Shown: positions 1,166 through 28,839 of the stretch, one piece after another
Position numbering within the stretch: position 1 is the stretch's first letter
Layout: the number at the start of each line of letters is the position of its first letter
DNA from: a virus
Lineage: Duplodnaviria > Heunggongvirae > Uroviricota > Caudoviricetes
Reading direction: 5' to 3' (one strand)
Length of the DNA stretch: 33,221 bases
Virus record (IMG/VR): IMGVR_UViG_2636415418_000001
Location: 1 to 33,221 of that record
Made by a program: the position numbers and the translations under genes
Notes under the pieces: model-generated
Databases searched by the model: none
What the model saw: the letters and a program-made list of their open reading frames with translations, nothing else
What the model was told of the DNA's origin: nothing

Positions 1166-3115
1166 ATGATTGTTCTAAATCAGATTAACTCCTCACTTTT
1201 GTACAATGTCGCTTACAGGTATACCATGAAATCCGAGACGCTAACTGTCCAACAACTTTTTCAAGACCGCCGACAATACTGCGTTCCATTCTATCAACGT
1301 GCCTATGTATGGACTCAGCGAAACCAATGGTCAGCTCTACTGGAGGATATCCTAGAGAAAGCACAATCCCGGCTCTCGGGTACAAAACCAACTCCCCATT
1401 TCCTTGGTGCAGTGGTACTGGAACCTCAACCAAAAAAAGGATTATTAGGTGTAGATTCCATACATATTATTGATGGTCAGCAACGATTGACCACTCTTCA
1501 ATATGTTCTGGCATCCATCCGATTAGCATTACGTGCGACAGATCTTTCCAACTTAGGGCCTCTCATTTCGTCTTGCCTGAAAAACTCAAACGAAGACACA
1601 ATGCGAAATAAAGAAGTAGAGCGCTTCAAACTGTGGCCAACTTTTCGGGATCAAACTCATTTTATTCAAAGTTTTAATGTTGAAAATATTGACGATATCC
1701 GGAATGTATTCTCTGATAGTTTCACGCAGCATGGTACGTTGCGTAAGCATTTTAATCACCCGCCATCACTAGAAGCATTATGTTTTTTTACTGAAGCCTT
1801 TATAAAGTGGATTAAAATAGAAAATCACTCACCACGAGAAAATGCTGTAGCATTAATTGAGGCTGTCTTGACGGATCTGAAACTAGTAAGCATATTTCTC
1901 GAGGCTGAAGATGACGCTCAAATAATTTTTGAAACATTAAATGGCAGAGGTGCGGAACTTCATGCCACAGATCTTATTCGCAATTATATTTTTATGTGCG
2001 CTGAACATGAAAATATTAATGCTGTTGAATTATATGAGAATGAGTGGAAGATCTTTGAAGATACGTACTGGTCAGAAAGACAACGTCGTGGTCGTATTAA
2101 TAAACCACGCATGGAGTGGCTAGTGCATGCGACATTGCAATCAGAAAGGCAACGTGAAATCGATCTGTCTCGTCTTTACAATGAGTATCGTGATTATGTA
2201 AGTAAGGACTTGCCTTCACAACGAGCAGATCTGCAAGTAAAGCGCCTCAAACAATATGCATCACAATATAAAGAATTGGTTGGTGGTTTTGGCACAACCC
2301 CCATCTCACACTTTGGACATCGCATCGCAGCCTATGATGTGACGACACTTTATCCGCTTGCTTTGTTCATTTCGATAGCTAACATCGCCGATGATGAGAA
2401 AGCAGCCATGTATAATGATCTTGTCTCCTACGTAGTACGAAGAGCCGTATGTGGCCTGACGCCAAAGAATTACAACAATGTATTTATGAATGTATTGCGG
2501 CACTTGTCTAAAACGGAAATTTCCAGTGTTGAGTTACGTAATATCCTCAATAGCTTAAATGGCGAAGCCTCACGTTGGCCTGGGGACTCAGAATTTCTCA
2601 ACGCTTGCATCAATGCTCCACTTTATCCTGGCAGGCTCGACGCACCGAAAATGCGCTCAATGTTAACGGAACTTGAAAGAGAACTTTGTCGCCAAGTGAA
2701 GACAGAGAAGCCTGATGTTCCAAATCTTTCTAACCTCGATATCGATCATCTTATGCCTCAAAGTTGGTATTCCTGTTGGCCTCTCGAAAATGGTCATATG
2801 GTGACAAATTCAGATGCTACGGTATTGAACCAAATTGTTCTGTCTGGAACCGATCTTACCCCTGAACAGCTACTGGTAAGGAAACGGCAACAAGCGATAG
2901 CTACGTTGGGAAATCTAACTTTGCTTAACCTTAGCGTAAACCGTTCTGTTCAGAATGCTGTATTTCTGAAAAAACGTGATGCTCTCATCGTCCACACCAA
3001 TCTACGACTGAACATTCCACTTATAGTTAAGGATAAATGGGATGAGGATGAAATCCTGGAGCGGGGTAAAAAGTTGGGGGAAATTGCATTGAAAGTATGG
3101 CCAAAACACGATTAA
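1166..3115 (+). CDS. DUF262 (ParB-like, DGQQR motif) plus DUF1524 (His-Me/HNH-like) fusion protein; GmrSD-like putative type IV restriction/defence nuclease
   Basis: 649-aa ORF; N-terminal YQRAYVW and IDGQQRLTTL motifs, C-terminal DIDHLMP motif; AT-rich relative to the adjacent tail genes; the ATG at 1226 (MKSETL) is an alternative start. Confidence 0.8.
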   Translation: MIVLNQINSSLLYNVAYRYTMKSETLTVQQLFQDRRQYCVPFYQRAYVWTQRNQWSALLEDILEKAQSRLSGTKPTPHFLGAVVLEPQPKKGLLGVDSIHIIDGQQRLTTLQYVLASIRLALRATDLSNLGPLISSCLKNSNEDTMRNKEVERFKLWPTFRDQTHFIQSFNVENIDDIRNVFSDSFTQHGTLRKHFNHPPSLEALCFFTEAFIKWIKIENHSPRENAVALIEAVLTDLKLVSIFLEAEDDAQIIFETLNGRGAELHATDLIRNYIFMCAEHENINAVELYENEWKIFEDTYWSERQRRGRINKPRMEWLVHATLQSERQREIDLSRLYNEYRDYVSKDLPSQRADLQVKRLKQYASQYKELVGGFGTTPISHFGHRIAAYDVTTLYPLALFISIANIADDEKAAMYNDLVSYVVRRAVCGLTPKNYNNVFMNVLRHLSKTEISSVELRNILNSLNGEASRWPGDSEFLNACINAPLYPGRLDAPKMRSMLTELERELCRQVKTEKPDVPNLSNLDIDHLMPQSWYSCWPLENGHMVTNSDATVLNQIVLSGTDLTPEQLLVRKRQQAIATLGNLTLLNLSVNRSVQNAVFLKKRDALIVHTNLRLNIPLIVKDKWDEDEILERGKKLGEIALKVWPKHD

Positions 3116-3365: not shown

Positions 3366-3740
3366 ATGATGCCATTTGCTCGTTATTTCTGCATCTTCAT
3401 AAACGTTGGTTTGGGAGAAGCGGCAAAACGGAATGTGGGAACTGGGGAAAATCAGATACCTGATATGTCATCATATGCATCAGGTTCAGGCTGGCGAAAA
3501 ATGCCAGATGGTTCAATTGAACAGTGGGGACGAATTAGTTTTCCTAGTGAACACGGGCCTGTATCCGCCAATGTTTCATTCCCGATTCCATTTACACAGA
3601 CACCGGGCATTGTAATTGTGTGCGATGGTGGTTTCGGGGGTGGGAATATGTGGGGGGCGACCAACTGGAGCACTACCGGCTTCATAGCTCACTGCAATTA
3701 TGGTCTTGAAGGTGGTGCGTTTTTCGCTAAGGGCTGGTAA
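3366..3740 (+). CDS. alternative tail-fiber C-terminal cassette (S'v-like); silent in this orientation
   Basis: ORF reads through crossover site A in the same frame and with the same NxGLG(D/E) junction as the expressed fiber at site B; Gly-rich C-terminus; Tfa gene directly downstream. Confidence 0.5.
3394..3419. repeat. 26-bp invertase crossover site (gix/hix/pix-like), pin-proximal
   Basis: TCTTCATAAACG-TT-GGTTTGGGAGAA; inverted copy of the site at 5189-5214 (13-nt perfect core TCTCCCAAACCAA); lies in frame in the alternative fiber cassette. Confidence 0.65.
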
Positions 3741-4183
3741 TGATGAAATATCTGTACGTAAACAACCTGGCATATCCTTACGAACTTAAGTCTCTTTATG
3801 TTGAAAAAGGTGAGTGGCCTGAAGAAAAAGGTGTTGATATAGACGAAGTAATTTTCAGGGAATATTTCTATGATACACCACCAGAAGGAAAATACAGATG
3901 TGTCGGAGAAGATGGACTGCCTGCATGGGTAGATATTCCTCCACCAACACGTGAAGAACAAATTGCATCAGCCGAAACTAAAAAGCAGCAATTGATTAAT
4001 CAGGCCAACGAATACATCAACAGTAAACAATGGCCAGGTAAAGCATCAATTGGTCGTCTGAAAGGTGAGGAACTGGTGCAATATAATTTGTGGCTGGATT
4101 ATCTGGACGCACTGGAACTGGTTGATACCTCCAGTGCTCCAGATATTGAATGGCCTACGCCTCCGGCAGTTCAGGCCAGATGA
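3740..4183 (+). CDS. tail fiber assembly protein (Tfa/U'-like) for the alternative cassette
   Basis: 147-aa ORF with a Tfa-family C-terminus (…TSSAPDIEWPTPP), converging on the minus-strand Tfa. Confidence 0.65.
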   Translation: MMKYLYVNNLAYPYELKSLYVEKGEWPEEKGVDIDEVIFREYFYDTPPEGKYRCVGEDGLPAWVDIPPPTREEQIASAETKKQQLINQANEYINSKQWPGKASIGRLKGEELVQYNLWLDYLDALELVDTSSAPDIEWPTPPAVQAR

Positions 4184-6079: not shown

Positions 6080-7128
6080 GAAATCGTCCCCAGTACCGCC
6101 AGTTCATTTTTTGCAATGGAGATATTGTCTGCCGGTGCAAGCAACTGATGGCTGTATTCCCCGTTCGCACCGGAAATCGCCTCACTGATACGCGATACCT
6201 TCAGTTCTCCCTGCGGATAACCATCACGCAGAAGAAACGAACGCAACTCCGCGGTGATGGCGGCTCGTATTTCTGGTGTGTCCGGCGTCACGCGGATATG
6301 AAAATCCACTTTGTGCGCCACCGGCCTGAATACATACAAATCAGAGCCTGCCACCGGGGCCAGTGGCACGATATGTTGTCTTGCTGCCGTTTCCGTTGAT
6401 TCTTCCGGAATGGGATTAATCAGGTCACTGCTGGCAATCATCACACCGACAGTTCCCGTTCCCATCCAGTGACGGTATGTCCATGCGCGGGTAATGCCGG
6501 GCACTTCTTTAGCCCAGACGACATAGTCCCCGTCAGCCCCGCCCTGAGGCGTCCAGTAATACCGCTCAATGACGCGGGCGCGCCACGTTTCCAGCTCTTC
6601 AGTATCAAATCCGCCTGTAAGGGTGTCAGCCACACCGGAAGACGGCAGACCATTCACCGGCGTGACCAGGATTAATGCCGTACCGTCGTCAGCGTTACCG
6701 ACCGCACCTGCACTTGAGCAGGCGATCGGCACGCGCAGGACACCACCGGAGCTGGTTGCATCGGCAGTTGCCGTGTACTGAACCAGGTCATCGCGCTGAA
6801 TAACACTCCCGGCGGTCACCTTCAGGCCATCGCTGACACCTTCCCAGCGCATATACCCGCTGGCAGCCGTGGCCCCCTTGCGCGGACACCGTTTCATCGC
6901 AGCATGTCGCGCCAGCCAGGACTCATCGCACAGGTCAGGCAGCATGTTCATTGCCAGATAATCGATGTAACCGTAAACCGTATGCAGCGCCGCCGCATAC
7001 ACCTTTGCCCGCACGTCTTCATCCATGCGCCGGAGCGTGTCGCTGACGTCCAGCCTGGTGAATAAATCGTTACGGAGCATACTGATATTTTCTGCCAGCG
7101 TCGGGCGCTGAAATTCACTGTCCGCCAT
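6070..7128 (-). CDS. baseplate J-like protein (Mu gp47-like)
   Basis: 352-aa ORF in conserved Mu baseplate gene order; overlaps both neighbours as in an operon. Confidence 0.7.
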
Positions 7129-7543
7129 GCGTTATCGCACTCCACAGATCATCAAAAGAAATCATTACCGGTCCGTCACGACGCCAGAGAGTGATACTGT
7201 TACCCAGTTCATTAATCCCGGTGCGGCGGATATCCAGATCAATACGGGACACCACGCCGTCATCAATCATCCATTGCAGGCATTCGCGGATATACCCCCT
7301 TACCGTCTGCACCAGCTGATTGGTCAGTTTGCTGCGCTGAAGCAGCCACAGTCGGGAGCCGTAACGGTCATTCTGTACCGCAGGCCAGGTATCCCCCCAC
7401 CATCCCATCGGGACGTCGGCGTTGTCATCAGGCTCCGCCCGCCGCCAGGTAAACAGGGAAATCACCACGGCGCGGGTCAGCGGATCCAGTTCTGCGCTGG
7501 CGCAGGTGCGTTTACCGTTCACCGTCAGCCACAGTTCCATCAT
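7115..7543 (-). CDS. baseplate protein, Mu gp46-like (GPW/gp25-like)
   Basis: 142-aa ORF between the spike and J genes. Confidence 0.6.
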   Translation of the reverse strand: MMELWLTVNGKRTCASAELDPLTRAVVISLFTWRRAEPDDNADVPMGWWGDTWPAVQNDRYGSRLWLLQRSKLTNQLVQTVRGYIRECLQWMIDDGVVSRIDLDIRRTGINELGNSITLWRRDGPVMISFDDLWSAITHGGQ

Positions 7544-8088
7544 GCCTCCATCGCTTTATCAGGTTTGTCGGTGTTACTGCCCTGACCGTTCTCTCTGTGA
7601 CGATGCCCGTTATAGGCAAGCCGCATCGCTGACATGGTGGTACCGCCGGAGTCGCACAGGTCTTTCACCTGTCCGGTCACTTCCAGGTCCATTTCAAAAC
7701 GTGCTCTGGGCGCATTGCGAAACGTGATCGTTTTACCTGCACCGTCCACCACGATCCCCTCCCGGGTCAGCGTCACAGACTGCCCCTGATCGTCATAGAC
7801 AGCCACCTCACCCGTCTGCAGCCCTTTCAGGCGGTAGCGCCGGTCCGACACCGTAACAACCACCGCATGAGAACGGTCGCCATCCGGAAACAACACCACC
7901 GCTTCCGCACCGCTGTTTGCCCTTGCGGTAAAACCGTAGGGTTCAAGATGTTCAACCCCGGCTTTGGGTTCACCGGCAATCAGGGACACATCCACGGTCT
8001 GACATTTCGTGGCGGCACTGATGCTTTTCACCACTGCCCGCCCAATCAGGCCGAGAAGTTGTCGCTGCATGGCTTCAATCGTCCTCAT
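7540..8088 (-). CDS. baseplate assembly protein V / spike (Mu gp45-like)
   Basis: 182-aa ORF; position and size fit a gpV-type spike. Confidence 0.65.
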   Translation of the reverse strand: MRTIEAMQRQLLGLIGRAVVKSISAATKCQTVDVSLIAGEPKAGVEHLEPYGFTARANSGAEAVVLFPDGDRSHAVVVTVSDRRYRLKGLQTGEVAVYDDQGQSVTLTREGIVVDGAGKTITFRNAPRARFEMDLEVTGQVKDLCDSGGTTMSAMRLAYNGHRHRENGQGSNTDKPDKAMEA

Positions 8089-9167: not shown

Positions 9168-10492
9168 TGCACTGGCACCTTCAGAGGGATCACCGGCACA
9201 AAGCCGGGATGCGTAATGGCATTACGCCGGATAATGTCCGCGTCACGCGCCGCGTTATCAAACCAGGTCGCCGCCAGCACCAGCGCGGGTAAAACCTCAT
9301 CCGGCGTGCGCTGAATGATCCGTGCAGACTGTTCAAGGCGCGTGTTGATATCCGCATTCAGATCTGCTTTCACCCGGCGCAGCGCCAGAAACAGCGCATC
9401 ACTGGTTGTACGGGACAACTCCTTATCAATTGCCGTATTCAGTGTGTCGCGAATGTCGGTCAGTTCTTCCCACGTTGGCAGGTCAACCGTGTTTTTCACC
9501 GCCGGTGCATTGTTCAGTGCCGGATGCGTGACAGAAGGCCAGCCGGTGCTCTGCGCGGGTGTTGTTGACTGCCCCACTGTGGCATTCTGCATCACCGCGG
9601 AAGTTGTGGGCGCAGGCAATCGTGTGACGGCATACGCCGCTTCGCTGATTGCGGTCGTACGAAGGGTGCTGGCAACCACGTTACGCTGCTGCGTCGCCGT
9701 GGCGGTGGTTTTACTGTCCGTTTTCCAGACGCCGCGCGGTTGCAGATCGCTGCCGAGGCTGACACCGGAAAGCGTTTTGATCATGGTGACCAGGTCGCTG
9801 GCGTTACCATAAAGGCGTTTCCCGGTACGCCACATTTTCTGCACCTGCTCAACGAAATTTTTTCCTGACGATGGCGGCGGCAGAAGTACCGAGATATCCC
9901 CCTGCAACAGCCTGGCGGCATCCGATACGGCAGAATCCACCACTTTCATCGCATCAGAAATATACCCAAGCATTGTGCTGGCATTACCGACGACGTCGTT
10001 CTGCACAAAATCTGCCACGCCATCGATACTGAAACCACTGAAGCTGTCACTGATGCAGTCATCCAGTGCAGAACAGGATGACATCAGCGTCTGCGCCGTC
10101 GCCGCACCTGAAGTGGGGTAAGAGAGTTCTCCCGCTTCGACAAACTTCAGGTCAAAGCGGACAATACGCCCTTCACTCTTCGATGTGCTGACCCGAACTT
10201 CCCCGTCAACACAGACTTTCAGCTCACCGTAAGTCGGATGGACAAGCGTGCCGGGACCGGGTTTATTCAGCGCGTCAATCAGGCGATCGCGCTGGTCAAA
10301 GCAGTCATCTCCCACCACATAAGCTGTGATGGACGGGCGGAAAGTGATTTTCCCCAGGTCTTCGGTATAGGGTTTGTCGCGGTTCGGGTATTCGTGCGTT
10401 TCCACACGACGACCGGTTCCCGCACTTTCTTCTTCAACCTTAAATGGCACACCGCGAAATGACGCGTCCTGAAGTCTGTCTTTCCACGTCAT
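9164..10492 (-). CDS. Mu N-like DNA circularisation protein
   Basis: Start chosen at MTWKDRL (GGAG RBS 5 nt upstream); the track start at 10534 has no RBS and would span the terminator hairpin. Confidence 0.65.
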   Translation of the reverse strand: MTWKDRLQDASFRGVPFKVEEESAGTGRRVETHEYPNRDKPYTEDLGKITFRPSITAYVVGDDCFDQRDRLIDALNKPGPGTLVHPTYGELKVCVDGEVRVSTSKSEGRIVRFDLKFVEAGELSYPTSGAATAQTLMSSCSALDDCISDSFSGFSIDGVADFVQNDVVGNASTMLGYISDAMKVVDSAVSDAARLLQGDISVLLPPPSSGKNFVEQVQKMWRTGKRLYGNASDLVTMIKTLSGVSLGSDLQPRGVWKTDSKTTATATQQRNVVASTLRTTAISEAAYAVTRLPAPTTSAVMQNATVGQSTTPAQSTGWPSVTHPALNNAPAVKNTVDLPTWEELTDIRDTLNTAIDKELSRTTSDALFLALRRVKADLNADINTRLEQSARIIQRTPDEVLPALVLAATWFDNAARDADIIRRNAITHPGFVPVIPLKVPVQ

Positions 10493-10507
10493 ATAAACTC
10501 CGTACAT

Positions 10508-10529
10508 AAAAAATCCCACCGGAGTGGGA
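10508..10529 (-). terminator. intrinsic terminator/attenuator between tape measure and N-like genes
   Basis: Minus strand: TCCCAC-TCCG-GTGGGA followed by TTTTTT, in the 60-nt gap between the two genes. Confidence 0.5.
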
Positions 10530-10552
10530 CTCATTAACAGATTAATTTTTCA

Positions 10553-12388
10553 TTACCTGCCAAAGCGCGTATAGCCAACATCATGGCTGACATCAAAACC
10601 GCTGGATCGCGTTTCCATAACCCGCATACCCGGAGGCGAATTCACAAAAGAGACCTTGATCTCACCATCAACTTTTGGCGCAGAAGCTTTGTTAATCATG
10701 AAGGGATTCGGGCCTGTGGCATCGGAGGCGTTGTTTGACTGAGCCGGATCCACCGCCTGATAAGGTGTGTATCCCCGTGCCGGTATTCCCGTCCCATAAG
10801 CATCATAAGCACCCGCGCCCCACTGCGCAGAGTTAATGGCATCGACCGTGTCACCGGAACTGTCGGTAAACCACTCAATAATTGGCTTCAGCTTGTCCCA
10901 CATATCCTGAAACCACTTAACAACCGGTCCCCAGTTATTGATTACCATCCCCAGCGGCGACCAGGCAAAAACCTTCTTCAGAAGTTCCCAGCCAGCCTCA
11001 AAATAAGGACCAATGGTTTCCCAGAGCTTCTTGAAATAAGGTCCGACAACATCCCAGTTAGTGATAATTAATCCCGCAGCCAGGGCTATCGCCGTCGCAA
11101 TCATGCCAATCGGCGTCATCGACATGATCCTGCTGACAATACTGATGGCACCGCCAACGCCCATCAATCCCAGTTTCAGAATCGCAAGACCGGCAGCAAG
11201 CCCGACGACGCCGCGAATAACCCGGGGATTTTCATCCGCAAACTTCGTGAATTTTTCCCCTAACTCCCCCAGCCATTGCGTGATATTTTGGGCGTCACCA
11301 GAAAATGCGCCGCCAATAGCTGCAAGACCGTTAGTTGCGGTCCCCGTCATTGCCTCCCACAGGTTGGACAGCGTACCAAGCTGTGCCTGAACACGTTTAT
11401 TCAGGCTGGCCTGTTTATTCATCTTCTGCTGGATCTGATCGTAACCATCCTTTCCTTTATCGATCAGAGCATTGACCACCTGAAGGGTTTCGGCATCATC
11501 ACCAAATATTGCCTTAAGTACACCTGTTCGCTTAACGTCGGTCAGTTTTCGCAGCTTTGCCAGTTGCTTAAACATGTTATCAAGACCGCCAAAACTCCCT
11601 TTGCCATCAGTAAAATCGAGCTGCACTCCGAGTTTCTGGCGGGCCATGACTTTATTGACGTCCCTGATTTTCTTAACGCTTAATCCGGACTGGATAACTT
11701 TTCGCAGGGCATTACCTGCCGACTCCCCGTTCATCCCCATCTGATCCATCATGACGCTGATAGGGGCAAGGCTCTGTGCAGCCTGAAGTCCGTCCTTATT
11801 CACCATCTTCAGAACAGAACTGGTTTTAGTGAAGAAGGACAACATGTTGGTATCGTCAACGCCCAGATAAAACGCCTTCTGGATAGTGTCGAACAGCCCC
11901 ATCATGTCTTCTGACGCCGTTCCGGTAGCATCCTGCATCTTTGCAGCAAACTCAGCAGCCGCTTCCGGTGTTTTTTTCAGTTGTACCGCAAGATAAGCTG
12001 TCGCTTTACCCACACCACCAAGAATGTTTTCTGCCGGGATCCCCTGACGCACCAGCATCTGCATCATGTTCTGGAAATCAGCCGTTGTACCGGGTAGCTG
12101 GTTACCCAGGCCAATAGCCAGTTTATTGATGTCCTGAAAGCTCTTTCCAACCTCGCCGTTCGCATCCATCATGGCGACTTTCAGCCCGGTGGCGGCGTTT
12201 TCCTGATCGGCATAAGATTTCAGGGAAAGCGTCAGACCCGCTGCCAGTCCGCCACCAAGCGCCAGCCCACCCTGTGACGCTTCTTCCGCCTGGCGTTTAA
12301 ATCCCCGGATTTTCTTTTGCATTTTCGACAGCGCGGGAGAAAGCCTGTCGACACCGGTGATCAACGCCTTAAGCTCAAATTCAGCCAT
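10553..12388 (-). CDS. tail tape measure protein
   Basis: 611-aa ORF, Ala/Gly-rich helical N-terminus and hydrophobic segments, directly downstream of the frameshifted chaperone pair. Confidence 0.85.
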   Translation of the reverse strand: MAEFELKALITGVDRLSPALSKMQKKIRGFKRQAEEASQGGLALGGGLAAGLTLSLKSYADQENAATGLKVAMMDANGEVGKSFQDINKLAIGLGNQLPGTTADFQNMMQMLVRQGIPAENILGGVGKATAYLAVQLKKTPEAAAEFAAKMQDATGTASEDMMGLFDTIQKAFYLGVDDTNMLSFFTKTSSVLKMVNKDGLQAAQSLAPISVMMDQMGMNGESAGNALRKVIQSGLSVKKIRDVNKVMARQKLGVQLDFTDGKGSFGGLDNMFKQLAKLRKLTDVKRTGVLKAIFGDDAETLQVVNALIDKGKDGYDQIQQKMNKQASLNKRVQAQLGTLSNLWEAMTGTATNGLAAIGGAFSGDAQNITQWLGELGEKFTKFADENPRVIRGVVGLAAGLAILKLGLMGVGGAISIVSRIMSMTPIGMIATAIALAAGLIITNWDVVGPYFKKLWETIGPYFEAGWELLKKVFAWSPLGMVINNWGPVVKWFQDMWDKLKPIIEWFTDSSGDTVDAINSAQWGAGAYDAYGTGIPARGYTPYQAVDPAQSNNASDATGPNPFMINKASAPKVDGEIKVSFVNSPPGMRVMETRSSGFDVSHDVGYTRFGR

Positions 12389-22894: not shown

Positions 22895-23758
22895 TCAGGA
22901 AATAATACCCTCCGATTTTCCTTTGCTTATGTAAACTAATTTATCATTACCTAATGATAACACTTGTTGAAATTGTGGCTTTATTTTTATGCATCCTCCC
23001 AAAAAATAAGCAAAACTACTTACCCCTCCAATAACATTATAAGGATAATCTACTGACATAGATAAAACAGTTCCCGCCAGACTAAATATTTGTGAAAAAT
23101 CGAACTCAAAGGAAGTAGAGATGCTAAATTTTATTGGACTTTTCCACACTTCACAATTTAAGCGTTCAATATCCTTTATTGCTTGTTTAAGATTAGAAAG
23201 AGCTTTTGCTTTCTGAAGATTGATATCACCAGAACGTTTTATATCCAAGTAAAGCTCATCAAGATATTCATGTAAAGCGATTAATTCAGGTTTTCTTCTT
23301 TCCTTGAAATCAAGAATATCATGTAGGTGCACATCTTCTGTGGGAACGGGTAATAAATTTGCTAGTTCAAAACGTATCACTTCTGAGGTTCTAGATAATT
23401 CAGGCACCAAGTTTATTTGGTCACTTAAAAAATGCATGCGCCAATCGACAGAAGAATCCGCATGCCTAAGTATATCTATTGTTTTGGCATGAGTTTCAGC
23501 ATAAAAATCAGCCATATATTGGCCATCAAAACAACCATGATGTCTATATACAGGTCTGGTTAGCAATCCACATTTTTCTAATTCATCCTCGTTATTTAAT
23601 GCTGTATGTATAATATTATTAGTGGGTGAAACTAGTTTATCCCAATAAAGACATAGATAGTTTATTTCTAATTGACTAATCCATTTACCTGTACGGATGC
23701 CTTTTCCATCCTCGGTTTTAAGTAATTCGCATGCACTAAATACCACACCTCTTTCCAT
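22895..23758 (-). CDS. hypothetical protein, AT-rich cargo (no family recognised)
   Basis: 287-aa ORF with a strong RBS (AGGAGA 7 nt upstream); markedly AT-rich compared with flanking lysis and packaging genes. Confidence 0.6.
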   Translation of the reverse strand: MERGVVFSACELLKTEDGKGIRTGKWISQLEINYLCLYWDKLVSPTNNIIHTALNNEDELEKCGLLTRPVYRHHGCFDGQYMADFYAETHAKTIDILRHADSSVDWRMHFLSDQINLVPELSRTSEVIRFELANLLPVPTEDVHLHDILDFKERRKPELIALHEYLDELYLDIKRSGDINLQKAKALSNLKQAIKDIERLNCEVWKSPIKFSISTSFEFDFSQIFSLAGTVLSMSVDYPYNVIGGVSSFAYFLGGCIKIKPQFQQVLSLGNDKLVYISKGKSEGIIS

Positions 23759-26838: not shown

Positions 26839-27001
26839 GACTCCTCCTTGCTGCCAGTCGCAACCATTTTTTATCAACCAGGCTGGCGGTATATCCGAGC
26901 AGTGTTGGTATTTCGGATGGCTTCAGCTCAGGTTTACGCTTACGACGATTTGGTACTCTGTAGATGTGTCCGTTCATGACACGAATAAGCGGTGTAGCCA
27001 T
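26831..27001 (-). CDS. ninE: NinE
   Basis: 56-aa product from MATPLIRV; C-terminal WLRLAARR motif as in lambda NinE. Confidence 0.7.
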   Translation of the reverse strand: MATPLIRVMNGHIYRVPNRRKRKPELKPSEIPTLLGYTASLVDKKWLRLAARRSHG

Positions 27002-27456
27002 TACGCCTCCTGCTTGTCGCGCAGCAGCTGGAACTCGCAGCTCTGTGGAATAGTCAGGTGGCAACCAATATTCATCGCCCAGGCTTCAACCTTACACAGG
27101 AAGACATACATCTCTCCGGTATCAAGATCGGAGGTATGGCGTAACGATTGGATAGTGGTGATATCACCGGTTACGACATCAACCAGGTCTTTGGTTTCAT
27201 AACCGAGATATGTGTGTTTGAGAGCATCTTTTACCCAAGCTGGAGTGGCGAACGTTTTACCCCTGCTGATGAGGTATTCACTGATTTCGCTGTACCACAT
27301 GTGGCTGAGTGCATTCTGGGAAAGACTGCGTCTCTCGCGCCACGGTTTAAGCACCATGCGAAAGCATTTGCCGTCCTCCAGATAAGGCTGGATCTGCCGA
27401 CCGATAGCGGTGAAGTTACCGCGATGCAATTTGATACCATCTTGTGGGAGGTTCAC
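27001..27456 (-). CDS. ybcN: YbcN/NinB-like protein
   Basis: 151-aa ORF with RSLSQN motif as in NinB; DLP12 order ybcN-ninE-ybcO-rusA. Confidence 0.7.
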
Positions 27457-27640
27457 GCTTCACCTCCGCAGAGGTCAAACGCTGGATGCAAAAAATCGCA
27501 GGTACATTTCTGCATCTGTGAAGGGAGAAGAGAGTTTGGATTGTATGTGCGCATAAACGTCCCCGTTTAGCGCAGAAGTCACCGAAGTTGTTCAAGCTCC
27601 GGTGACACAAGTATGGCGGTTTGATTATGGAAAATCAATT

Positions 27641-28453
27641 TTAGAATTTCATGTTAAAGCCGCTAAAATCTGTTTTTTTCTTGTATGGTATGGTCGTGTA
27701 CTGATCTGTTGATGTTTTACTCATAACATGTGCGAGAATAAGTTCATCTCCTGAATCCAGCCAAAACTCCACAGTCAAATGAATTTTTGGTTTAAGACCA
27801 TGCATTAATGCAACCATTTGTGCGCTAAACACTTCACCCGTGCTTAGTTTATAGTCTGAACGGAAACCTTGGATAAAACCACTTTCACCTAATACATTAT
27901 ATCTTAATTCATTATCCTTTAATTTATTAGTAAATAAGAACAAAAAGTCAGCGGTAACCTCGCTAAAATGATCAGCGGAAACCCTAACTATTACTTTATT
28001 GGATTCTGTTTTAAAGTCATATGAAAGATTGGAGAATAATTCATCCTGAGGTTTATAAGTGCTTTTACCAGAGATAATATCATTCATTTGTGCTATCACT
28101 ACATCTATACCATTTGTATAAAGGTCCAAATACACTTTTTGAGTAAGAAGTGCAGGCATAGGTGATTCATCACAACGTATAGCAATGAATTTAACATCTC
28201 CAGTGGCGGCTTTCATAAGTGCATTCTGCCATTCTAAAGACACCATATCACTCTTAAGGCTATTTTTTGTAACAAAGAAAAAGAAAATTTTAACGGATTC
28301 GATTCCATCATTCATTCGTTCAATAATCCCTTCACCAGGCTGAATTGACCACGAATCATAAAATACGTTATCCCTGCCATATATATCTGCAATTTTATCT
28401 GCAATATACCCAACGAAAGCTTTGTCTTTATAATTATGACTAATAAAAATCAT
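27641..28453 (-). CDS. TIR-domain protein with uncharacterised ~140-aa C-terminal domain
   Basis: N-terminus MIFISHNYKDKAFVGY…WSIQPGE…SLEWQNAL fits the bacterial TIR fold; strongly AT-rich gene with its own RBS. Confidence 0.7.
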   Translation of the reverse strand: MIFISHNYKDKAFVGYIADKIADIYGRDNVFYDSWSIQPGEGIIERMNDGIESVKIFFFFVTKNSLKSDMVSLEWQNALMKAATGDVKFIAIRCDESPMPALLTQKVYLDLYTNGIDVVIAQMNDIISGKSTYKPQDELFSNLSYDFKTESNKVIVRVSADHFSEVTADFLFLFTNKLKDNELRYNVLGESGFIQGFRSDYKLSTGEVFSAQMVALMHGLKPKIHLTVEFWLDSGDELILAHVMSKTSTDQYTTIPYKKKTDFSGFNMKF

Positions 28454-28545
28454 CGCTTAAACCCTTATTTTATGTGCAAAAGATATAAAAACCAGCCATT
28501 GAGGCCTTGTTATTATAACTTTAGGTTTTGGAAATTCCATTGATT

Positions 28546-28839
28546 TCAATACCCTACCCTCCCCCAAACCATCAACACCCGTTTCATCGCGGCACTCTGG
28601 CGACACTCCTTAAAAATTAGGTTCGTGCTCACCTTTCCTTCCCGTTCTTCCCTGGTAGCAAACCGGTAATACACCGTTCGCCAGACCTTACCTTCGATAA
28701 CCAGAAGACCTGCCCGTGCCATTTTAGCCGCGGCCTGATTTATGCTGGTTACTGTTGCGCCTGTTAGCGCGGCAACGTCCGGCGCACAGAAGCTATTATG
28801 CGTCCCCAGGTAATGAATAATTGCCTCTTTGCCCGTCAT
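28546..28839 (-). CDS. ren: Ren
   Basis: 97 aa, near-identical to lambda Ren over most of its length. Confidence 0.85.
   Translation of the reverse strand: MTGKEAIIHYLGTHNSFCAPDVAALTGATVTSINQAAAKMARAGLLVIEGKVWRTVYYRFATREEREGKVSTNLIFKECRQSAAMKRVLMVWGRVGY

Follow-up and report, generated by a model that had tools for sequence, protein, structure and literature searches.

A prophage-borne TIR protein with a private C-terminal beta-sandwich, carried as cargo between ren and ybcN

We carried out a computational analysis of a TIR-domain gene in the IMG/VR virus record IMGVR_UViG_2636415418_000001 (Caudoviricetes), the whole stretch of which, 33,221 nucleotides, is referred to below as the window. 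The gene (27641..28453, minus strand) was identified in the list of open reading frames (ORFs) as a complete coding sequence (CDS) with an ATG start and 270 codons followed by a stop, and its product joins an N-terminal TIR domain to a C-terminal beta-sandwich. The protein is 100% identical to WP_052246034.1, annotated as 'toll/interleukin-1 receptor domain-containing protein' in NZ_CP063499.1 (EH10-18-47). Among complete E. coli genomes only this one has an identical copy, which lies in a prophage at tRNA-Thr beside proA. The window is from a lambda-like prophage, and the gene order in this region is O-P-ren-TIR-33-aa ORF-ybcN-ninE-ybcO-rusA-ylcG-Q, the lambda-type O and P, ren, ybcN, ybcO, rusA and Q all lying on the strand of the TIR gene. 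The upstream flank is ren (28546..28839, minus strand; RefSeq 'protein ren' in the matching record). The downstream flank is ybcN of the NinB family (27001..27456, minus strand; RefSeq 'DNA base-flipping protein YbcN', with a weak Pfam NinB match at E=4.2e-4), which is preceded by the conserved 33-aa ORF (27453-27554).

A preliminary description of this DNA, made from its letters, had portrayed the gene as an AT-rich island inserted between ren and ybcN, and both parts of that statement were borne out. In 300-bp windows the GC content is 31-37% across the TIR gene versus about 50% on both flanks; the gene as a whole is 33.6% GC, as compared to 50.7% for the window, 52.7% for ren and 50.4% for ybcN. 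Homology with the sister prophages of E. coli breaks off at about 28562, inside the last five or so codons of ren, and restarts exactly at the TIR stop codon at 27641. What differs from the sister prophages is an AT-rich cassette of about 920 bp (27642..28561, no strand assigned, 33.7% GC) comprising the final ren codons, a 92-bp upstream region and the TIR CDS as far as its stop codon. Sequences resembling the ren-ybcN flanks were present in 3657 of 5426 complete E. coli genomes and the TIR gene in one of the 5426. In the sister prophages examined, the cargo at this junction is different and consists of paired small hypothetical genes. The TIR gene is cargo swapped in by cassette replacement with mapped breakpoints; the other outcome that the preliminary description had allowed for, a conserved core nin gene of ordinary composition, did not hold. 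With its atypical composition, its variable slot between conserved genes and its absence from most relatives, the layout is that of a classical moron, the promoter being a candidate only. The gene pairs in the sister prophages encode proteins of 102 and 67 aa (L018, 1900-2570) and of 82 and 93 aa (L019, 1962-2535), with a stop codon abutting the same conserved junction, and could themselves be small defence or toxin-antitoxin cargo.

The candidate promoter consists of a -10 hexamer, TATAAT, read by eye 59 nt 5' of the ATG (28512..28517, minus strand). The hexamer is kept in all four E. coli-type copies of the cassette. At a spacing of 16 nt, three relatives have a -35 element (ATGAAA) that matches the consensus at four of six positions, and the window has one that matches at three of six. 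A consensus promoter scan returned no coding-strand site upstream of the TIR gene because the -35 element in the window has only these three matches. A Shine-Dalgarno sequence, AAGGG, is located 8 nt 5' of the ATG (28462..28466, minus strand) and is kept in all seven enterobacterial copies that were aligned. On the other side of the gene, in the shared flank 3' of the cassette and 5' of ybcN, the terminator scan detected a terminator-like hairpin followed by a T-run (27487..27514, minus strand), at what we take to be the position of lambda tR2. Rfam gave no structured RNA match between 27000 and 29000.

The N-terminal half of the protein (residues 1-128; 28070..28453, minus strand) is a bona fide member of the TIR_2 family, in agreement with the N-terminal TIR domain that had been described for the 270-aa ORF. 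Pfam TIR_2 (PF13676) matched residues 2-113 with E=8.5e-20 and 71.9 bits against a gathering cut-off of 28, and the domain has the flavodoxin-like TIR fold. Comparison with other TIR proteins gave values of 16.0 for Hydra TRR-2, 14.9 for MyD88, 13.7 for SARM1, 13.5 for Cat1, 13.0 for SpbK, 11.7 for BcThsB and 10.5 for AbTIR. When a profile of the family was run against PDB sequences, it retrieved Cat1 (E=1.3e-9), a TIR-TPR protein, AbTIR and PdTIR. In PADLOC, NCBIfam and PHROGs the matches were confined to the TIR portion and came from models of unrelated architectures (TIR-NLR, PDC-S66, retron-TIR and phrog_15646).

The residues expected at a TIR active site were then located. The glutamate of SLEWQ (residues 72-76), which had been singled out as a possible catalytic residue, does fall at the catalytic position: E74 (codon GAA, 28232..28234, minus strand), in the motif S68-D-M70-V-S-L-E74-W75, is invariant in 43 of 43 family sequences and aligns with AbTir E208, the glutamate of 'WTNYELDG' in AbTIR, and with Cat1 E74. 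The E208A variant of AbTir is inactive, and E74 of Cat1 lines its NADase pocket. The BB-loop region (residues 31-44, FYDSWSIQPGEGII; 28322..28363, minus strand) is near-invariant in the family alignment, with F31, Y32, D33, S34, W35, S36, P39, G40 and G42 invariant, and was modelled at low confidence (predicted local distance difference test, pLDDT, 62-65). Within it, G40 aligns with the BB-loop glycine G174 of AbTir and D33 with Cat1 D33; AbTir G174A has no or very low activity and Cat1 D33 lines the active site. In addition, S5, H6, N7, D33 and S68 align with the Cat1 pocket residues S7, H8, N9, D33 and S68. All of these aligned positions (E74, S5, H6, N7, D33, S68 and G40), as well as M70, are either invariant across the family or conserved at 90% or more. 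Judged by alignment, the TIR half thus carries the hallmarks of a catalytic NADase, a glutamate in the alpha-C region and an intact BB-loop glycine.

The residue at position 70 bears on the product that such an enzyme would form. The invariant M70 aligns with AbTir W204, four positions before the catalytic glutamate in the WxxxE motif, so the family does not have the aromatic residue associated with cyclisation. Every cyclase TIR examined by Manik et al. is aromatic at the W204 position, and W204A sharply lowers cyclisation. Because the active-site residues match those of Cat1 and M70 replaces the aromatic residue, the predicted reaction is hydrolysis of NAD+ to ADP-ribose (ADPR) and nicotinamide, as in Cat1, rather than formation of a cyclic ADPR (cADPR) isomer. 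This prediction carries moderate weight, since cyclisation requires the aromatic residue but is not ensured by it, and since some TIR signals are non-cyclic, an example being the histidine-ADPR conjugate (His-ADPR) of type II Thoeris. It is also possible that the unusual M-x-x-x-E-W motif gives a non-canonical product or uses a non-canonical substrate.

The second half of the protein had been described as unrecognised, and it gave no match in Pfam, NCBIfam, PADLOC or PHROGs. A Pfam RNase_P_Rpp14 match in this half (E=0.0059) was below the cut-off and was set aside as chance. The two halves are connected by a linker (residues 129-142; 28028..28069, minus strand) that has low pLDDT at residues 134-136 and ends in a conserved F140-S-N142-L motif; conservation reaches 90% or more at T132, F140 and N142. 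A model of the C-terminal domain by itself shows a nine-strand beta-sandwich (pLDDT 90.9, predicted template modelling score 0.84) that occupies residues 143-256 (27686..28027, minus strand) and is proposed to serve in recognition or assembly. Its best PDB matches in a fold search were generic binding modules rather than enzymes, including carbohydrate-binding modules (CBM2/CBM3), chitin-binding domains, Ig-like pilin or adhesin domains and the mu-homology domain, with Z no greater than 8.1 and identity below 15%. A search of BFVD with the beta-sandwich gave nothing significant.

A profile of the C-terminal domain was searched exhaustively against 1.84 billion representative proteins and returned only 230 matches. 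These are proteins of about 260 aa with the domain at about residues 135-257, or fragments that keep remnants of the TIR domain, the exceptions being one chimeric assembly and one unrelated FN3-repeat protein. Since it occurs almost exclusively together with this TIR, the beta-sandwich is private to this TIR clade. The idea that it is a shuffled sensor module was rejected, as it was not found with any other effector domain. The two halves of the protein are unequally conserved: mean pairwise identity is 60.7% for the TIR domain and 30.5% for the beta-sandwich, and the positions with 90% conservation or more number 43 of 128 in the former, including most of F31-I44, and six of 114 in the latter. 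The most divergent C-termini still keep the motifs F/Y-x-N-[LV] and A-x-x-[FY]-x-E-P. To judge from the alignments, this imbalance fits a conserved effector coupled to a diversifying recognition domain.

These properties also bear on another explanation, in which the protein would be the ligand-gated effector of an unrecognised pathway that works in the manner of Cat1, TIR-SAVED or TIR-STING. A small molecule, made upon infection by a host or phage enzyme whose gene is elsewhere, would bind to the beta-sandwich, whereupon the TIR domains would form filaments and deplete NAD+. In domain order and size the protein is like Cat1, to which its TIR sequence is also closest, the beta-sandwich has a fold similar to that of carbohydrate-binding modules, and a patch of residues that spans phyla (F140, N142, A160 and E165) would suit a conserved ligand. 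The fold search, on the other hand, showed the beta-sandwich to be unlike CARF, SAVED, STING and cyclic nucleotide monophosphate (cNMP)-binding folds, and outside the patch the domain is poorly conserved (30.5%). There is also no linkage to a cyclase or to CRISPR genes, with one SMODS protein among 107 immediate neighbours of the homologues. We regard this explanation as very unlikely. A broader form of it is that the beta-sandwich does not sense phage proteins but is a domain of a new class, ligand-binding or regulatory, that serves TIR effectors as a CBM-like functional counterpart of CARF, SAVED and STING, and whose patch reads a small molecule or glycan arising from infection or envelope damage, so that the protein would be the effector arm of an undescribed route without a linked cyclase. 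This, too, seems rather improbable to us.

The family is widely distributed. A search of 5.8 billion proteins yielded 617 clusters, the best matches listed being near full-length at about 260 aa, and a scan of species-representative genomes found 96 relatives, with 34-51% identity among the 80 best loci. These 80 loci come from Bacteroidota, Firmicutes, Alpha-, Beta- and Gammaproteobacteria, Spirochaetes, Actinobacteria, Ignavibacteria, a Gracilibacteria metagenome-assembled genome (MAG) and a Nitrosocosmicus (archaeal) MAG. The member in the candidate phyla radiation bacterium Candidatus Gracilibacteria (L084, 3565-4125) is an ORF that stops at 186 aa under translation table 11, which we presume may reflect UGA recoding in this lineage and not a real truncation. 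The member in the thaumarchaeal Nitrosocosmicus MAG is at L096, 2701-3465.

Homologues are carried by phages and plasmids. Two Enterobacter lambdoid prophages, whose replication modules differ, have one that is 57% identical at the equivalent position, immediately ahead of ninB, and another, 84% identical, is in a degraded lambdoid element. IMG/VR contained 30 loci, one of them 100% identical. In about 14 of the 30, from several phage groups, the gene is found between a sigma70-r4/DUF1492-type late regulator and terS-terL-portal, a slot at the boundary of early and late genes that corresponds in function to the nin/Q region. A tblastn search of a phage collection of 50,697 records gave no match. 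Two Bacillus plasmids of 8.3 and 8.8 kb also carry a homologue and have little else in common except a small adjacent recombinase and a DUF3967 gene. On these plasmids (L130, 2744-4129; L131, 6903-8302) the homologue is tail-to-tail with a tyrosine recombinase of about 190 aa, which suggests a small mobile two-gene unit.

To look for a partner gene, every ORF within 6 kb on either side of 84 genomic loci was clustered. The only cluster common to all 84 loci was the TIR family itself. The next were a tyrosine integrase (nine loci), a hybrid kinase (six), a Dcm-type methylase (five) and Mfd-like helicases (five), and the mod and res genes of type III restriction-modification (R-M) were 7-16 bp from the homologue at three loci each. 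Among the 107 immediate neighbours, no Pfam family occurred more than four times, and PADLOC matches among the neighbours were mostly to type III and type II methylases. No partner was conserved across the 84 loci, the 30 viral contigs and the two 8-kb plasmids, so that the gene is standalone, as had been stated. A 102-aa ORF upstream of a Bacteroidales homologue was considered as a partner and rejected because it did not recur across the 84 loci, and a toxin-antitoxin or addiction module was judged unlikely because no neighbour is conserved.

The preliminary description had left a choice between a single-gene abortive-infection module and a ThsB-like sensor with its partner elsewhere. According to the latter, the protein would generate a signal, such as a cADPR isomer, His-ADPR or a similar molecule, for an effector encoded elsewhere in the host, and would be an orphan, prophage-borne extra sensor for Thoeris. 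ThsB proteins are indeed small TIR proteins and Thoeris can employ several TIR sensors. In one Prevotella lineage the homologue is about 3.5 kb from a pair of ThsA_Macro and ThsB_TIR genes, and the one SMODS protein among the 107 immediate neighbours could also be taken to favour a signal generator. The Prevotella Thoeris system, however, already possesses its own ThsB. As the preliminary description had noted, no ThsA-like gene is adjacent to the TIR gene of the window by Pfam scans of its neighbours or RefSeq annotation, and no ThsA-type gene (SIR2/SLOG or Macro) is linked to the homologues in the 84 loci, the 30 viral contigs and the two plasmids; the 8.3-kb and 8.8-kb Bacillus plasmids have none listed. 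The protein itself has no match to ThsB_TIR (PF08937), matches PADLOC ThsB1 only at E=0.032 and 11.5 bits, retrieves no solved ThsB chain at E<=10, and has an invariant methionine where all the cyclase TIRs examined carry an aromatic residue. Furthermore, the spread over many phyla would require a compatible effector in each host. On this evidence the single-gene module is preferred to the ThsB-like signal generator, which we consider quite unlikely.

Some of the loci have neighbours of interest in their own right. The Prevotella homologue is in a defence island with GmrSD, an FRG protein and complete type II Thoeris (L010), in which the 317-aa FRG-domain protein (7032-7985) stops 15 nt short of the homologue, which is followed by a 538-aa protein without a Pfam match (9201-10817); the island also holds an integrase and an AAA_15 ATPase. 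The FRG, TIR and 538-aa genes may be a lineage-specific operon. At loci L013-L015 (4720-7689, minus strand) a 989-aa protein of unusual architecture, with a weak TIR_2 match and an HD_3 domain, is divergent from the homologue and beside RadC.

A role other than defence against phages was weighed as well. The protein might be a Tcp-like host-interaction or virulence factor mimicking the TIR adaptors of animals, a factor that benefits the phage by remodelling NAD metabolism or by hindering host TIR immunity through hetero-oligomers, or an inter-bacterial toxin. Many homologues are from host-associated Bacteroidales, Prevotella and Parvimonas, carriage by phages is also compatible with a phage-benefit gene, and defence was seen with only 12 of the 32 E. 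coli TIR candidates that Wang et al. tested. Against these roles, homologues are also found in free-living soil and marine taxa and in the archaeal MAG, and family scans of the protein and its model revealed no secretion-related domain. The strictly conserved catalytic glutamate and pocket residues point to an enzyme and not to an adaptor mimic, and chromosomal copies beside R-M genes, GmrSD and integrases suit defence. A toxin would, moreover, need a conserved immunity or antitoxin gene nearby, and none is conserved. Taken together, such roles appear unlikely.

We propose that the protein is probably a self-contained, single-protein sensor-effector NADase for abortive infection or superinfection exclusion, carried as prophage cargo. 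Carriage on phages, small plasmids and at some defence or mobile-element loci (those with GmrSD, type II Thoeris, type III R-M, the TIR+HD protein and integrases) speaks in favour of this proposal. Precedents for such a mechanism are SpbK, Cat1 and the single-protein E. coli systems TIR-V, TIR-IX and TIR-VI, compared below. In a lysogen the gene would probably be expressed from its own weak promoter and the protein would be inactive as a monomer or small oligomer. When a second phage infects, the C-terminal beta-sandwich would bind a trigger, most likely an oligomeric virion or assembly protein such as the portal, tail tube, tail fibre or capsid protein. Binding would cluster the N-terminal TIR domains head-to-tail and complete a composite active site. 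NAD+ would then be consumed and the infected cell starved of it, such that infection would abort while sibling lysogens, and with them the prophage, would be protected.

Several points weigh against the proposal. The NADase activity, the protection from phages and the trigger are inferred, and, the promoter being only a candidate, expression in the lysogen is a prediction. M70 would also be compatible with signalling. Many chromosomal copies are among housekeeping genes (UvrB, MreB, mfd, glyS) with no recognisable defence island; in Bacteroidales and Parvimonas, lone homologues are found in such surroundings. The beta-sandwich is without other effector partners and hence is not demonstrably a modular sensor. 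Across phyla, conservation is retained at the small patch in the region of the beta-sandwich (F140, N142, A160 and E165), and this is more readily explained by a conserved ligand, or by an autoinhibitory contact made with the TIR domain within the molecule, than by recognition of fast-evolving phage proteins. Lastly, at P225, a proline in the 'TP-x-x-P' strand of the beta-sandwich that at least 90% of family members keep, the window protein (codon 27779-27781) has a histidine, as do its nearest relatives of the E. coli type.

Other genes of this and related prophages may be cargo as well. At 1166-3115 of the window (plus strand), a 649-aa type IV restriction gene of the GmrSD type (GmrSD_N and GmrSD_C) is on the strand opposite to the tail genes and adjoins the tail-fibre and assembly genes (3366-4183), so the prophage likely holds at least one further defence cargo gene. 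Between the lysis cassette and HNH/terminase there is a gene for a 287-aa DUF6236 protein (22895-23758, minus strand) where the otherwise related EH10-18-47 prophage has DUF6979, and this site resembles a further variable slot for cargo. Beside the cI-type repressor, presumably the position of rexAB in lambda, the EH10-18-47 prophage encodes a DUF6414 protein (L001, 7152-8012) and an Enterobacter prophage DUF7946/DUF7947 (L002, 974-1837); these genes are further cargo candidates.

If the role in defence is confirmed, the family would be a widespread single-protein TIR immune system, present in many bacterial phyla, on phages and plasmids and in no fewer than one archaeal MAG. Its sensor domain would be new, and its TIR domain comes first, as in Cat1 and unlike SpbK. 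At 270 aa the protein would be a tractable model for the control that a non-catalytic domain exerts over TIR assembly and NAD+ depletion. Both the lambdoid ren-ninB/ybcN junction and, in other phages, that between the late regulator and terS would likewise be cargo slots to mine for anti-phage genes. With its invariant methionine, the family also lends itself to testing the rule by which production of cADPR isomers requires an aromatic residue at that position.

The protein was compared to the known TIR systems. SpbK (YddK) of the B. subtilis element ICEBs1 is similar in being a single protein of about 267 aa on a mobile element, with a TIR NADase that has the catalytic glutamate and a small non-catalytic sensor; the window family is likewise a single gene on mobile elements (the prophage cassette, viral contigs and small plasmids). 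SpbK acts by abortive infection, in which the dodecameric phage portal YonE binds the N-terminal sensor and clusters the TIR domains. Its domain order is reversed, with the sensor at residues 1-94 and TIR at 116-267, and the sensor domains are unrelated. No SpbK chain came up in the sequence search at E<=10 or with the family profile at E<=0.01, and there was no SpbK-type match in PADLOC, such that the likeness is one of fold only. SpbK also makes N1-cADPR, while the window family is without the aromatic 'cyclase' residue.

Cat1, the best PDB match of the family profile, likewise has an N-terminal TIR domain, a linker and a C-terminal sensor in 263 aa. It is a pure effector that converts NAD+ to ADPR and nicotinamide through filament assembly driven by its sensor and cyclic tetra-adenylate (cA4). 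Its C-terminus, unlike the all-beta sandwich of the window protein, is a CARF domain that binds cA4 downstream of type III CRISPR-Cas, and it has a tryptophan where the window family has M70. TIR-NLR/TIR-TPR proteins (PDB 9m0n) have the closest TIR domain by single-sequence search (E=5.9e-6; PADLOC TIR-NLR, E=2e-7), also at the N-terminus. These proteins differ in being about 824 aa long with NTPase and TPR sensor modules, and only the first 85 or so residues match. As to CBASS and Pycsar TIR effectors (TIR-SAVED, TIR-STING and PycTIR), no SAVED, STING or cNMP-binding domain was found by Pfam, PADLOC or fold search. Thoeris ThsB differs by the adjacent ThsA, the PF08937 domain and the aromatic residue at the cyclase position, and the window protein has its private beta-sandwich in addition. 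The protein is neither a ThsB, an SpbK homologue, a Cat1 nor a CBASS or Pycsar effector.

No description of an architecture that combines TIR with this private beta-sandwich was found in the literature, and neither the domain-centric E. coli screen (NAR 2026) nor the gut-TIR survey mentions the family. Wang et al. (2024, PMC11350192) surveyed 64 TIR clusters in E. coli. The window gene is found in only one of the 5426 complete E. coli genomes. The E. coli proteins TIR-V and TIR-VI as well as TIR-IX from that study are single-gene TIR proteins with demonstrated anti-phage activity that depends on the active site. They are triggered by portal proteins in the case of TIR-V and TIR-IX and by a tail fibre protein in the case of TIR-VI (PMC11350192). 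TIR-V and TIR-IX have superimposable C-termini and divergent N-termini (PMC11350192), implying an order of sensor then TIR; by this description they are set apart from the window protein. The window protein is best classed with these single-protein TIR abortive-infection systems, as one whose putative sensor domain is new.

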